Source: a virus
Lineage: Duplodnaviria > Heunggongvirae > Uroviricota > Caudoviricetes
Strand: one strand, 5' to 3'
IMG/VR virus record: IMGVR_UViG_2690316148_000014
Length of the DNA stretch: 4,443 nt
Part shown: piece after piece, positions 13-4,443 of the stretch
How positions within the stretch are numbered: the stretch's first letter is position 1
Layout of the letters: each line of letters begins with the position of its first letter
Notes under the pieces: generated by a model
The model's database searches: none
Told to the model about the DNA's origin: nothing
What the model saw: the letters and a program-made list of their open reading frames with translations, nothing else
Made by a program: the position numbers and the translations under genes

Positions 13-1221
13 TTAAGCGCAGCTATTTAGTGAATTAAGTAAATTAGTCAGTGACCTTGTAAAGTCTGTTAAACCTTCCTGTGAACCATCGAACATTAAG
101 GCCAGATTATTATTCCATGAATTACTTAAGCGGCCTAACTGCGTCTGAGTAGAGTTAATAATCTTTTCCCATCCACCAGCTTTATCAATCATCCTTCCCA
201 TTTCAGCGGATACTTTAGGAAGAACATCTTTAGAAAGAACCTTACCGTCTTTCATGGCCTTGTCTAATTCTTCCGTAGTCATCCCAAGACTTCTGGCAAA
301 TAACTGAAAAGCACCTGCCATTCTGTCACCTAATTGACCGCGTAGCTCTTCAGCCTGAATCTTTCCTTTAGATGCCATCTGCTCGAAAGCTTTTAAAATC
401 CCGTTAATTTCATCGGTGCTTAGCCCCATTAATCTGGATGTACCAATCACATTAGAAAATAAGGATTCTTTCTGGTCTGCATTCATATCACCAGCACCAG
501 CGGAAAACTTAGCAAAACTGCTTAATGTTTCAATCTGGTCTACACCACTACTATCAGCAAGATTCTTAACAAATTCTGTAGCTCGTTTAGCACCTTCATC
601 ACCTAAAACGAATTGTGCCGCTCGTTGTGATGCTTCTTTTTTCAGACCAACCTCCATAATCCGCCTGTAAGCTTCTAAGGCTGTCTGAAAACTATAAATG
701 GCTGTACCTGCTTTGATTGCACTCGTAGCTAATACATCCAGACTATTTGAAGCATTTTCACTGTGATTATTTTTGCTGGTGGTCTTGTTAAACTTAGAAA
801 GTGTTTCACGAAGAGACTGATTTAACTTTGCTAACTCACGATTAAAAGTTTCGTTTCCAAGTGTCTTGGATTTACTGCTTAAGCTGTAATACTGGCTTTT
901 AAAATACTTCTCAAGCATAGGATTAAAGTCACGAAGCTTGCTCATATTCGCTGAGTAAGCTGCTGTGATTGCTCTGCTTCCGCTAATTCGTGGCTGTCTT
1001 GGTTGTCTAAGTGGCTTTAAAGTATCCTCAATTTCAGTTTTAATCTTAAACGCTCTAGTGTTTTTAAGACGCTGCTCAATCTTGGAAACAGTTTTATCGA
1101 CATTTCTTTCCATTAGTTTGAGAGAATCATTTAAAGGCGTAGGATTAACTCTAAACGACTTATTCAATCGCTTCTCAATTCGTGATGCTACCTGCATCGT
1201 TTGTTTCTCGGCTTTTTCCAA
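13..1221 (-). CDS. Tape-measure-domain protein (phage tail length tape measure-like); 402-aa ORF as given, true 5' end probably at 1315 across the N16 gap
   Basis: Long minus-strand ORF with stop TAA at 15..13. The track start at 1221 is a TTG; the same frame stays open upstream to the gap. The C-terminal third (ASKGKIQAEELRGQLGDRMAGAFQLFARSLGMTTEELDKAMKDGKVLSKDVLPKV...KAGGWEK) matches, from memory, the conserved tape-measure domain of lambda gpH-type tail proteins. The N-terminal two thirds are low-complexity and K/S/N-rich. Not verified by HMM search. Confidence 0.7.
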   Translation of the reverse strand: MEKAEKQTMQVASRIEKRLNKSFRVNPTPLNDSLKLMERNVDKTVSKIEQRLKNTRAFKIKTEIEDTLKPLRQPRQPRISGSRAITAAYSANMSKLRDFNPMLEKYFKSQYYSLSSKSKTLGNETFNRELAKLNQSLRETLSKFNKTTSKNNHSENASNSLDVLATSAIKAGTAIYSFQTALEAYRRIMEVGLKKEASQRAAQFVLGDEGAKRATEFVKNLADSSGVDQIETLSSFAKFSAGAGDMNADQKESLFSNVIGTSRLMGLSTDEINGILKAFEQMASKGKIQAEELRGQLGDRMAGAFQLFARSLGMTTEELDKAMKDGKVLSKDVLPKVSAEMGRMIDKAGGWEKIINSTQTQLGRLSNSWNNNLALMFDGSQEGLTDFTRSLTNLLNSLNSCA

Positions 1222-1339: not shown

Positions 1340-1594
1340 NNNNNNNNNNNNNNNNNNNNNNNNNNNNNNNNNNNNNNNNNNNNNNNNNNNNNNNNNNNNN
1401 NNNNNNNNNNNNNNNNNNNNNNNNNNNNNNNNNNNNNNNNNNNNNNNNNNNNNNNNNNNNNNNNNNNNNNNNNNNNNNNNNNNNNNNNNNNNNNNNNNNN
1501 NNNNNNNNNNNNNNNNNNNNNNNNNNNNNNNNNNNNNNNNNNNNNNNNNNNNNNNNNNNNNNNNNNNNNNNNNNNNNNNNNNNNNNNNNNNNNN
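1340..1594. other. Run of 255 N (gap or masked sequence); content unknown
   Basis: Directly visible; the flanks show no duplicated sequence. Confidence 0.95.
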
Positions 1595-1617
1595 GGTGAT
1601 AACTTGACGTTTGTTTT

Positions 1618-1865
1618 NNNNNNNNNNNNNNNNNNNNNNNNNNNNNNNNNNNNNNNNNNNNNNNNNNNNNNNNNNNNNNNNNNNNNNNNNNNNNNNNNNN
1701 NNNNNNNNNNNNNNNNNNNNNNNNNNNNNNNNNNNNNNNNNNNNNNNNNNNNNNNNNNNNNNNNNNNNNNNNNNNNNNNNNNNNNNNNNNNNNNNNNNNN
1801 NNNNNNNNNNNNNNNNNNNNNNNNNNNNNNNNNNNNNNNNNNNNNNNNNNNNNNNNNNNNNNNNN
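1618..1865. other. Run of 248 N (gap or masked sequence); content unknown
   Basis: Directly visible. It is separated from the previous N run by a 23-nt island, ggtgataacttgacgtttgtttt. Confidence 0.95.
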
Positions 1866-2478
1866 CTTTCATAGTATCAAGTTCTTTTTTAAGCTTTTGC
1901 TTTAACTTATCCAGTTTACCGGAATAATGCTTAGTCAAATTAGCTTCAGCTAACTGAAGAATCTCTTCATCTGTTTTATCAGTCATCAGAATAAATTGAC
2001 CAGAACCCCTTAATGCTTGTCTGACATCAATTAACCGGAACCCTTCAGGGATACTTTGAAGAACTTTAGGAACGTCTTCAATCGCTGTACCAAAACCATC
2101 ATTAAAGTTTCCTTCATAATAGATAAACGGGTTTGACTTAATCTCGTAAGCAATATCATATTCTGAAGGTTTCGAGGTTTCTTCGAAGTTCTTAACAGCA
2201 TCGTAAGCGACATCAAGTCTAAGACGCTGTGATTTTAAAGCTGGGTAATATTCACGCTCAAGCTCAAATAGTGCTTCAGTTTTGCAGATATCAGGCATTT
2301 CTTGAGGCTCAGGAGACACAAAGGAAATTACCTTTGGTGACATCTTTAGCTCTTGCTCAAGCTCAATGCGCTTGTCATGCTCTTGACGCTGAATAGTATG
2401 TAGCGGATGTTCACCCTGTGGTGACCAGTCTCCGAAGCTATCAACCTTTTTACCGTTAATATATAAATCGTTTGTCAT
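1866..2478 (-). CDS. Hypothetical acidic protein, 5' end intact, 3' end lost in the N run (204 codons visible)
   Basis: ATG at 2478..2476 with GAGGAAA Shine-Dalgarno 5-8 nt upstream. The frame is open for 204 codons until it hits the Ns at 1865. The protein is charged and acidic (MTNDLYINGKKVDSFGDWSPQGEHPLH...LDKLKQKLKKELDTMK). The 381-aa track ORF spans two N runs, so its length and whether it is one gene or two cannot be known. No family recognised. Confidence 0.65.
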
Positions 2479-3495: not shown

Positions 3496-3696
3496 CTACC
3501 AATAACCTAATTCCGCTTTATTTCGTTCAAACCATTCCGCTGTAACTGCTGTCTTTAGTGTTGCGTTTGGGCTGGTGGCATGAATGAAGATATCTTTTGG
3601 ATTGCAAGCATCACCGAAACCACCTTCTTTGATGAGCAGGTCTGATACATGCTTAATCATTTTATCTGTCAAATATTCGAATTTAATACATAACAT
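3496..3696 (-). CDS. Hypothetical 66-aa protein
   Basis: ATG at 3696..3694 overlaps the upstream stop as TAATG and has GGAGA 5 nt upstream. The track's 77-aa version starts at a TTG inside the upstream gene and has no Shine-Dalgarno. Stop TAG at 3498..3496. Confidence 0.6.
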   Translation of the reverse strand: MLCIKFEYLTDKMIKHVSDLLIKEGGFGDACNPKDIFIHATSPNATLKTAVTAEWFERNKAELGYW

Positions 3697-3968
3697 TAAA
3701 TCTCCAGGAGTAAATTGTTTGGGTGGCAATTTCTTTTATTACCATCCCTGAAGATAATCTTTTTAGTTGCCTGAACTTCATGATGCAAAAACCAGATGAC
3801 ATACTTCAGATAATAATCACGAGTGCCATAACGAATCATTGGATTACCGTAAGCATCATCTCTTGTCTTAACCTCTCCACCATCAATCCATTCAAGCATT
3901 CCTGTCTCATAATTAATCATGAAGTAAGTTGCAAAGAACCGTTTAATATCATCTCGCCATTGCTTCAT
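3696..3968 (-). CDS. 90-aa protein with a degenerate HNH-like motif (possible HNH_3-type His-Me finger remnant)
   Basis: ATG at 3968..3966 with GGAGG 7 nt upstream. The C-terminal IIFRDGNKRNCHPNNLLLEI resembles, from memory, the HNH_3 core (vdHiDGNKxNNrxxNLrw), but F-R replaces the first His and the protein ends right after the motif. The upstream region (EWIDGGEV...YGNPMIRYG) is NUMOD-like. Confidence 0.7.
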   Translation of the reverse strand: MKQWRDDIKRFFATYFMINYETGMLEWIDGGEVKTRDDAYGNPMIRYGTRDYYLKYVIWFLHHEVQATKKIIFRDGNKRNCHPNNLLLEI

Positions 3969-3970
3969 AA

Positions 3971-4249
3971 TCAGACCTCCTGAGACAGTTTGTGAATTTT
4001 GATACTTAGTAACCTTGCTAAATCCAGTCCAAAAGCATTTAAGGATTTCAGACTATCAAGGTCATCTTGCTTAATCCTGATATGGTGTCTTGCAGCCTCT
4101 AAGCGACTATTAAGCAAATCCTGTTCGTTAATATCACGGTTAATTGCAAGCTTCATCACTGCTGAGTGTGGCAGACCTGTAATGTTTTTGATTCGGTTCA
4201 GTTCATCAAAGGCTGTCTTTGTAACTCTGGTTAATGTGTGTTTATTCAT
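3971..4249 (-). CDS. 92-aa putative ribbon-helix-helix (CopG/Arc-like) DNA-binding protein
   Basis: ATG at 4249..4247 with AGAGGA 7 nt upstream, directly after the upstream stop (TAAATG). The N-terminal RVTKTAFDELNRIKNITGLPHSAVMKLAI follows the beta-strand/helix/G-L-x-x-S-A/helix pattern of ribbon-helix-helix regulators (compare CopG ...MGLSKSAMISVAL, from memory). The C-terminal half is helical and charged. Confidence 0.7.
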   Translation of the reverse strand: MNKHTLTRVTKTAFDELNRIKNITGLPHSAVMKLAINRDINEQDLLNSRLEAARHHIRIKQDDLDSLKSLNAFGLDLARLLSIKIHKLSQEV

Positions 4250-4443
4250 TTAAAAATCCTCTGTAACTAAATAGGGGTCAAACTCGAAATCTGGTTGCTC
4301 GTTTTCCATTGGCTCAATATTCCCAACGGCAATATGATGTTCAACAATGCCAATTAATTTCGCGCACATCACAGCAAGCAAAGCGCAATATTTATCGCTT
4401 GGTAATTCGTAACTGGATTTGCCCCTATATTTCCAGACATCTG
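4250..4443 (-). CDS. 3' end of a hypothetical protein (5' end beyond the window)
   Basis: The minus-strand frame is open from the window edge to TAA at 4252..4250 (64 codons: ...DVWKYRGKSSYELPSDKYCALLAVMCAKLIGIVEHHIAVGNIEPMENEQPDFEFDPYLVTEDF). Its stop abuts the ATG of the ribbon-helix-helix gene. It is not in the ORF track, probably because it is edge-truncated. Confidence 0.5.
   Translation of the reverse strand, partial: DVWKYRGKSSYELPSDKYCALLAVMCAKLIGIVEHHIAVGNIEPMENEQPDFEFDPYLVTEDF

Follow-up and report, generated by a model that had tools for sequence, protein, structure and literature searches.

The question raised by the stretch of caudoviral DNA filed as IMG/VR record IMGVR_UViG_2690316148_000014 (4,443 nucleotides, analysed whole and referred to below as the window) is what the four small genes packed at its end are for, and of what larger element they form a part. 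An earlier note on this DNA had described them as a translationally coupled four-gene cassette, consisting of a truncated open reading frame (ORF), a ribbon-helix-helix (RHH) protein, a degenerate HNH-like protein and a 66-aa protein, and had likened their layout to that of phage accessory, toxin-antitoxin-like or anti-defence loci. We refer to these genes as A (A′ for the truncated copy), B, C and D. Comparison with related loci allows us to state with good confidence that the cassette is the promoter-proximal head of the first operon of an island of about 11 kb, the operon of the promoter designated P1, and that this operon is broken in the present copy.

According to the ORF list, the coding capacity of the window is exclusively on the minus strand, and the four ORFs of the note are present (Table 1). 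Their junctions, TAAATG between A′ and B (4252–4247), TGA-tt-ATG between B and C (3973–3966) and TAATG between C and D (3698–3694), are as the note had read them, and each downstream gene has a Shine-Dalgarno-like run within the gene upstream of it, GAGGA for B, GGAGG for C and GGAG for D; only the GGAGG, which had been placed inside the B/C junction, has to be moved, to 3980–3976. The tight junctions recur in all related islands examined. A common strand, abutting or overlapping stop and start codons, a Shine-Dalgarno run of its own for each gene and the lack of an internal terminator in the terminator scan support, at the level of sequence, the proposed arrangement of A–D as a translationally coupled operon, whose transcription is predicted.

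The reality of the genes was assessed from dN/dS ratios between alleles, calculated by the Nei–Gojobori method. The ratio was 0.10–0.17 for B (unsaturated alleles), 0–0.11 for C (dS 0.10–0.15, dN at most 0.014) and 0–0.30 for close alleles of D, the two most distant alleles of which gave 0.07 and 0.40 at saturated dS. This confirms that B, C and D are under purifying selection and are not chance ORFs. In a public collection, 8420 indexed blocks contain the exact C protein.

Gene A is the first gene of the operon, and its intact form encodes 185 aa. The note was right in calling the ORF truncated; the cause, however, is an insertion of the insertion sequence (IS) IS2 and not merely the window edge. 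Positions 4409–4443 match at 100% the ends of elements annotated as 'IS3-like element IS2 family transposase', and homology to uninterrupted islands begins exactly at 4414, with 99.96% identity to one of them (locus L007) over 2549 nt. IS2 cuts A after codon 131, leaving codons 132–185 (54 codons) and the stop, and the retained codons are identical to the C-terminus of intact A in three islands (L001, L003 and L007). Because IS2 inserted in A, the cassette in this window is without its native promoter P1 and most of A.

The other end of the window is similar in kind: at base 1 the tape measure gene is interrupted by an IS630-type element, at the point where an IS with a DDE_3 domain is found in L007. 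Being bounded by IS2 and an IS630-type element, the window is thus the stretch between two IS elements in an IS-rich copy of the island. Judging by this IS load and by how near-identical proteins are named, the host is probably of Shigella type. The tape measure gene (TMP_3, E 4.5e-21) looks frameshifted here, as its start (MAQFKVDDF..., 1175–1315) and the long TMP_3 ORF (13–1221, minus strand) are in different frames, with a masked run of N at 1245–1260 between them. Together with two further runs, at 1340–1594 and 1618–1865 (519 bases in total), this run masks portions of the genes for 236 and 69 aa and of the tape measure 5′ region, and the ORFs listed across the runs are artefacts. Since A is cut, P1 removed and the tape measure gene broken, this copy of the island is a decaying one. 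Both the IS2 disruption and the island setting had been missed in the earlier account.

Intact islands of this family have a common order, given here in the direction of transcription. They start with a small serine recombinase gene or other cargo, a divergent gene for a 62-aa membrane peptide, P1, A, B and a variable slot, which in this window holds C and D; a hairpin, a 107-aa gene, a mini-ORF, a second promoter (P2) and genes of 236 and 69 aa make up the middle; and at the end stand a tape measure gene of about 700 aa, a 'Dit-like' gene of 256 aa and, on the opposite strand, a large serine recombinase gene of about 506 aa. Besides a further site, they occupy tonB/yciI, wrbA/ymdF and the interior of yecE, and their hosts comprise E. 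coli, Salmonella, Citrobacter, E. albertii and Shigella-type genomes. E. coli O111:H21 15A (NZ_CP077477, ~869.2–880.5 kb) and A0 34/86 are examples of strains in which the island is intact. Of 5426 complete E. coli genomes, 381 (about 7%) contain a related locus; owing to the mosaic nature of the region, megablast aligns at least 80% of the stretch in only 32 of these. Profile scans of the island proteins found no capsid, portal or large terminase gene. As expected of a satellite, the island has a recombinase of its own and no full set of virion genes, its structural genes being only those for the tape measure and for the 256-aa protein, a tube initiator as described below. Megablast and blastn searches of the window against phages returned the IS2 end as the sole match, and nothing relevant was found in the literature on an element at tonB/yciI, wrbA or yecE or on a Felix-O1 satellite, so that the island is apparently undescribed so far.

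That several sites hold identical content speaks for a discrete mobile element and against a random prophage remnant. This bears on the possibility that the genes have no current function and persist as inert leftovers from a prophage that has degraded. The window taken by itself would suggest as much, since the island is full of IS elements here, with A cut by IS2 and a broken tape measure gene. However, islands that are intact, with the same content of about 11 kb, occur in several genera and at several integration sites, purifying selection acts on B, C and D, and the 95.5% nucleotide identity of the tube-initiator gene to current lytic phages indicates recent exchange. Thus, we consider inert leftovers very unlikely.

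Comparison of the neighbourhood across the islands divides the cassette in two. A and B are adjacent and present in every island examined, but the slot after B varies, and we distinguished four arrangements of it (V1–V4 in Table 1). In three of them a C-like gene is accompanied by a D-like one, placed upstream or downstream of it: D′ (71 aa), about 66–71% identical to D, precedes C′ in L019, and D″, 35% identical to D, comes after C and an inserted ORF of 76 aa. Two allele types of B are shuffled relative to the slot content, and the conserved hairpin forms the right edge of the slot. A and B are therefore a fixed core, and C and D an exchangeable pair whose order can be swapped and which is replaced in Citrobacter; a single co-conserved unit of all four genes is not supported.

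The same variability bears on whether the cassette is toxin-antitoxin or abortive-infection cargo, with B as an RHH antitoxin or autorepressor, C and/or D as its toxic partner and the whole as an accessory defence. The genes are small and overlapping, the N-terminal half of B is weakly like VAPB_antitox (E 0.023), and the variable cargo region contains Dam, FRG-domain and HNH-AP2 genes, all of which would fit. On the other side, no PADLOC model and no toxin domain matches, B is always preceded by A and not by a promoter of its own, and C is without a catalytic His; the gene after B may be C, D′ or a 128-aa helix-turn-helix (HTH) protein, and the B alleles are shuffled, unlike a co-evolving pair. 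With no fixed pair and no recognisable toxin domain, a toxin-antitoxin system was rejected, and the toxin-antitoxin or anti-defence framing of the note finds no toxin or defence model to match it; as a broader description, accessory defence cargo appears to us quite improbable.

For protein C, the description as degenerate HNH-like proved apt. C matches Pfam HNH_3 (PF13392) with E 7.5e-5 and 22.7 bits, just below the curated cut-off of 24.8. When C was aligned to a canonical HNH_3-AP2 protein of the same island family, Phe73 (motif IIFRDGN) stood at the position of the catalytic general-base His (IDHIDG in the canonical protein, IIFRDG in C), and the Asn-Asn pair of HNH_3 was replaced by Asn-Cys (RNC). 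The alignment shows no variation at G76, N85 and L86, which are the Gly and the final Asn-Leu (with the metal-ligand Asn) of the beta-beta-alpha-Me motif. Only 18 matches to C came out of an exhaustive search among 1.84 billion (1.84e9) representatives. Its distant relatives are multi-repeat proteins with the same His-less motif and F, Y or V at the His position; the His is kept in one relative of 95 aa, C′, which carries PF13392 and matches a PHROG HNH family at 6.4e-9. PDB sequence and profile searches for C returned noise only. As judged from these alignments, C is a stand-alone HNH_3-like domain without the catalytic His, yet strongly conserved.

The features of C can also be read in another way, as those of a decayed remnant, with C′ as the intact copy, of free-standing homing-endonuclease genes (HEGs) that settled beside D, perhaps from HEG-rich Felix-O1-like phages, in which case the cassette would be a core A-B(-D) with a selfish passenger. 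The C-like gene precedes D in one variant and follows D′ in another, as independent insertions predict; C′ has retained the catalytic His and is recognised as HNH_3; canonical HNH_3-AP2 genes occur in the variable region of the same islands; the weak matches of C′ include HNH genes of phages of Felixounavirus size; and there has been exchange of DNA between the island and such phages. Against this, the His-less C has a dN of about 0–0.014 at a dS of 0.10–0.15, and because of such strong purifying selection it is not decaying; at 90–95 aa it is without the DNA-binding extension of functional homing endonucleases, and its start and stop are tightly coupled to the neighbouring genes in every variant. 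We therefore regard a passenger origin without further role as unlikely.

In the case of protein B, the picture is more complex. The sequence fits a strand-helix-Gly-helix pattern, apparently twice (residues ~5–38 and ~55–90), and the N-terminal half gives sub-threshold matches to DndE (E 0.013) and VAPB_antitox (E 0.023), both of which we take to be members of the RHH clan. In the AlphaFold2 model, helices 11–24/28–34 and 61–69/77–90 fit the RHH pattern, but the strands are not modelled (pLDDT 50); Foldseek with this model gave no match, and no PDB profile matched B. The RHH assignment of the note is thus weak, with a sequence pattern and sub-threshold matches in its favour, no significant profile and an unusable model; B is possibly a (tandem) RHH-like DNA binder. 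B forms 34 clusters at 90% identity, the source-named ones being from E. coli, Citrobacter and Salmonella.

Intact A is composed of two unlike parts. Its N-terminal ~130 residues are mosaic and variable, and residues ~130–185 are nearly invariant among 38 alleles and end in an acidic tail (ENEQPDFEFDPYLVTEDF). Such a pattern is as expected for a protein with one fixed and one fast-evolving partner. A has 1090 clusters, of which the 120 listed are all at least about 85% identical to it; neither the family scans with Pfam, PHROGs, NCBIfam and PADLOC nor sequence and profile searches of PDB gave a match for A. A PDB hit to Ltp lipoprotein repeats (0.17) was regarded as noise and not trusted. The homologues of B, C and D, by contrast, form only shallow sets. 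For D, there are 25 clusters at 90% identity, with the source-named ones from Enterobacteriaceae, and no match in PDB or Pfam. In tblastn searches of 50,697 phage records, neither A, B nor D, nor the 236-aa protein of the distal operon, had a match. The scans with Pfam, PHROGs, NCBIfam and PADLOC covered all island proteins, and together with PDB profiles, AlphaFold2 (A and B) and Foldseek (B) they were uninformative for A, B and D, so that the note's statement that no firm function can be assigned holds.

The genes at the far end of the island link it to Felix-O1-like phages. The 256-aa protein is 82–83% identical to the product of the gene after the tape measure gene in lytic myophages of the genus Felixounavirus, e.g., wV8 gp74, and matches 301 phage records. 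In phage Bas63, gp17 is the tape measure and gp18 the tail 'tube initiator' seen by cryo-EM (PMC12609058). Because it is encoded directly after the tape measure gene, the island protein is taken as the tube initiator (Bas63 gp18). Its residues ~41–160 are 100% identical to wV8 gp74 and its C-terminal part only 35–64%; the 5′ region of the gene has 95.5% nucleotide identity to wV8 over 558 nt, which indicates recent exchange with current lytic phages. The island tape measure, whose best matches in the phage records are in phages of Felixounavirus size, has about 80% identity to the Felixounavirus protein in the first 40 residues and about 75% at the C-terminal tip, which in Bas63 is the part that touches the baseplate hub; over most of the region between, identity falls to about 20%. 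By their alignments, the tape measure and the tube initiator of the island are chimeric with virulent Felixounavirus proteins, and the specific link to a helper expected of a satellite is seen at the level of homology.

The position of the genes upstream of morphogenesis genes could also be explained if they were accessories of DNA packaging, A or B being small-terminase-like or cos-binding proteins and C an HNH factor aiding terminase as in HK97-type cos phages; B does weakly match a P27-family small terminase model (TIGR01558, E 0.027). However, the island contains no large terminase, portal or capsid gene, all matches of A and B are far below threshold, and C, besides having no catalytic His, is in the homing-endonuclease-type HNH_3 and not in the terminase-associated HNH family. 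A terminase-associated HNH module was rejected, as the family of C differs and the island is without terminase, portal and capsid genes, and a packaging role of any kind is highly unlikely.

Table 1. Features read in the window and in related islands (positions are those of the window unless a reference locus, L with a number, is named).
Feature	Positions	Strand	Remarks
IS2 copy, end (~30 nt)	4414–4443		100% match to annotated IS2 ends
A′ (remnant)	4413–4250 (open frame 4441..4250)	−	stop TAA 4252–4250; ORF list and sequence reading
B	4249–3971	−	92 aa; ORF list and sequence reading
C	3968–3696	−	90 aa; ORF list and sequence reading
D	3696–3496	−	66 aa; ORF list and sequence reading
Slot V1			B-C-D; this window, L009, L002, L016
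Slot V2			B-D′ (71 aa)-C′ (95 aa, His kept); L017–L019
Slot V3			B-C-X (76 aa)-D″ (~70 aa); L010, L013
Slot V4			B, then a single 128-aa protein with C-terminal HTH; Citrobacter L014
Hairpin module (~127 nt)	3464–3338	−	16-nt inverted arms AGACGCTCTCAATCGC ... GCGATTGAGGAGGTCT, between D and the 107-aa gene
107-aa gene	3317–2994	−	in every island
Mini-ORF, 21 codons	2994–2929	−	hydrophobic (MELVIICFVLIGMIAGASIKV); ATG overlaps the stop of the 107-aa gene (TAATG)
Promoter P2	2904–2876	−	TTGACA-17-CATAAT with TG, then TGTATATAT; 11/12 promoter match
Terminator-like hairpin and T-run	2868–2844	−	directly after P2; first such site downstream of D
Second terminator-like hairpin	2706–2686		minus strand; in the long leader that separates P2 from the 236-aa gene
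22-nt inverted repeat	2503–2580 (L007 11389–11466)	−	in the same leader
Distal operon	2478–1	−	236-aa gene 2478..1768; 69-aa gene ~1745..1536; tape measure 5′ part from 1315
Promoter P1	L007 9075–9125	+	upstream of A
Second hairpin copy	L007 8876–8979		upstream of P1, Shigella-type islands
62-aa ORF	L007 8690–8870; L017 8032–8220; L009 15641–15835	−; −; +	divergent from P1
Tape measure and tube initiator, reference	L009 8834–11923		chimeric with Felixounavirus proteins

The limit of the cassette after D, as drawn in the note, is arbitrary. From D to the 107-aa gene the terminator scan was negative, and genes on the same strand continue; therefore, the unit probably runs on through the hairpin, the 107-aa gene and the mini-ORF, the 107-aa gene being probably co-transcribed with A–D. 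The mini-ORF was conserved in the 14 loci where the end of the gene was found, as two divergent alleles of 21 and 25 aa, both open and hydrophobic, and the 25-aa allele of other islands begins MGLIIAWT.... It is likely that it encodes a real, unannotated small membrane peptide.

The hairpin module (~105–127 nt) has a variable centre and an RNA fold of −51.6 kcal/mol (z −6.7). At least 80% of the module is present in 310 E. coli genomes, mostly at 95–99% identity or better and at a median of one place per genome, and across E. coli it is conserved more strongly than the adjoining genes. A covariation test was uninformative, since the arms are invariant; two of the eight sequences supplied were non-homologous. 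An Rfam scan of the whole island gave no match, and a genome-wide miniature inverted-repeat transposable element was ruled out as the identity of the hairpin, which occurs about once per genome and is confined to the island. A second copy upstream of P1 was seen only in Shigella-type islands, in which the A–D block is thus bracketed by direct copies of the hairpin. Candidates for its role are an RNA processing site, a protein-binding site and a recombination boundary.

The two promoters are paralogous. In the islands examined, P1 and P2 have in common TGTTAAAAA, TTGACA, a 17-nt spacer, the −10 hexamer, TGTATATAT and ATTGTATATAT. P1 is without a terminator and is followed by a small palindrome (GTTAAC...TTAAC), and P2 runs directly into a terminator-like hairpin. 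The layout of P2 resembles that of promoters needing a trans-acting read-through factor, which suggests that products of the P1 operon may control the tail operon. No antiterminator family and no protein of the Q family was detected, and A is without a Pfam match. It should be noted that the long leader between P2 and the 236-aa gene contains a second terminator-like hairpin and a 22-nt inverted repeat. The promoter motif of the island was searched for in phage wV8 and not found. The early promoters of wV8 (L021 8100–13640; TTGACA...TAAATT) each have a GGGGAGG...CCCC hairpin and a GGAGATTCAAAATG leader, an architecture similar to that of P2 and the leader of the 107-aa gene, the sequences being non-homologous.

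On the other side of P1, the divergent ORF of 62 aa (MVNLPPELGSPDVWAGGGVGLIAGLLLRY...) was located in three islands, and the conserved hydrophobic membrane peptide that it encodes could be a small toxin or an exclusion factor. Between A and the small serine recombinase gene, L009 has about 2 kb (15412–17424) with no ORF above about 64 aa, in which Rfam finds nothing; in other islands Dam, FRG-domain, TPR, HTH or HNH_3-AP2 genes occupy the same position, which is the variable cargo region.

Taken together, our results lead us to give nearly an even chance to the reading that the island is satellite-like, with a tie to Felix-O1-type phages, and that the operon serves it in regulation or in manipulating the helper. 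In such a scheme, the P1 operon would be the island's own regulatory or helper-manipulating module. B would be a small RHH-like DNA binder, possibly acting on the boxes common to P1 and P2; C would be a domesticated homing-endonuclease domain that binds DNA instead of cutting it, for which CapR of PLE is a precedent; D would be the partner of C; and A would act as a specificity or adaptor protein, possibly one that lets transcripts from P2 pass the terminator behind it. The second operon, from P2, ends in a tape measure and a tube initiator with interaction surfaces matching those of virulent Felix-O1-like myophages.

Several points weigh against this reading. The roles of A, B, C and D are ones that we infer, and no family model reaches threshold for A, B or D. 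The best RHH-type profile matches of B (DndE, E 0.013–0.027; VAPB_antitox, E 0.023) are all below cut-offs, an hhalign comparison of its halves for a tandem repeat was not significant (P 0.019, probability 2.5%), and its AlphaFold2 model is unusable at a pLDDT of 50.0; the all-helical model of A, with a pLDDT of 49.6, is too poor to use. Citrobacter islands with a different gene in the slot indicate that the island as such can do without C and D. The 'satellite' status is read from gene content, and among the genes of the island none for replication, packaging or capsid remodelling was recognised. Finally, the particular gene copies of this window may be silent, as their operon is severed from its promoter.

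A more specific form of the same idea is that the islands, as satellites or as defence islands that hijack tails, make up an enterobacterial family not described before and are parasites of virulent Felix-O1-like myophages, a counterpart in E. coli, Shigella and Salmonella of PLE and its helper ICP1 in Vibrio, with A-B-C-D in early control. B and the dead HNH protein C might then bind the DNA of the island and/or of the helper, A might use its variable half to read the helper or to license read-through at P2, and the chimeric tape measure and tube initiator might be built into helper tails or poison them. We consider this possible but on balance doubtful. In the literature searched, no satellite or dedicated island targeting Felix-O1-like phages was found. 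These phages are widely used in typing, biocontrol and therapy of Salmonella and E. coli. If the idea is true, the island, present in about 7% of complete genomes, would make it possible to study in E. coli, as a tractable model, how a virulent phage is parasitised, and could explain differences in susceptibility between strains; the cassette would be the likeliest seat of island-specific control or hijacking functions, and with the dead-site HNH protein C a nuclease domain would have been recruited by an element of this kind for a second time, independently. Should the island be inert, the cassette is just four conserved orphan genes of a decaying element.

The comparison with known systems is instructive for each part of the island. 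B is like the RHH regulators and antitoxins (Arc/MetJ/CopG superfamily, VapB-type proteins and the tandem-RHH TraY) in its pattern of strand, helix, Gly turn and helix, in its small size and in the tightly coupled operon, and differs in that its matches are all sub-threshold (E 0.013–0.027), its structure is not confidently modelled and its duplication is non-significant. C shares with the HNH_3 (PF13392) homing endonucleases, such as I-HmuI and the HNH-AP2 proteins, the N-terminal strand region and the beta-beta-alpha core in register, with the Gly and the final Asn-Leu kept; it differs in the score (22.7 vs. 24.8 bits), in the replacement of His by Phe and of Asn-Asn by Asn-Cys, and in its length of only 90 aa without a DNA-binding extension, and its dead-site form is under purifying selection.

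In the Q-dependent late promoters of lambdoid phages, PR′ is followed by tR′. P2 resembles them in its near-consensus sigma-70 sequence, in a −10-like TATATA run early in the transcript and in the terminator-like hairpin that comes next. The island differs in having no Q-family protein and in that P1 carries the same boxes without a terminator, so that the resemblance is architectural only.

At the level of the island rather than of the A–D cassette, a parallel may be drawn with the tail assembly inhibition (Tai) systems of phage-inducible chromosomal islands (PICIs), prophages and P4-like satellites, which act on the tail assembly of other phages (PMC11364771). The island is likewise an enterobacterial mobile element, and its chimeric tail proteins could interfere with or redirect the assembly of helper tails, although the Tai proteins, unlike these, are not homologues of tail proteins.

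The closest comparison is with the PLE of Vibrio. No sequence similarity to PLE genes was found or is to be expected, and the two elements differ in size (about 11 kb vs. about 18 kb) and in content, as the island carries helper-like tail genes, for the tape measure and the tube initiator, and has no recognised replication initiator or capsid-remodelling gene. The likeness is drawn from gene content, with induction, excision and transduction of the island putative. PLE is reported to integrate via a large serine recombinase (PMC6002521), and the island, too, is a small chromosomal element integrated by a large serine recombinase, with a tie to a virulent myophage. PLE encodes CapR, a domesticated endonuclease without catalysis that acts as a DNA-binding repressor of helper genes (PMC8096241), and the island is alike in having, in C, a nuclease-derived protein without its catalytic residue.

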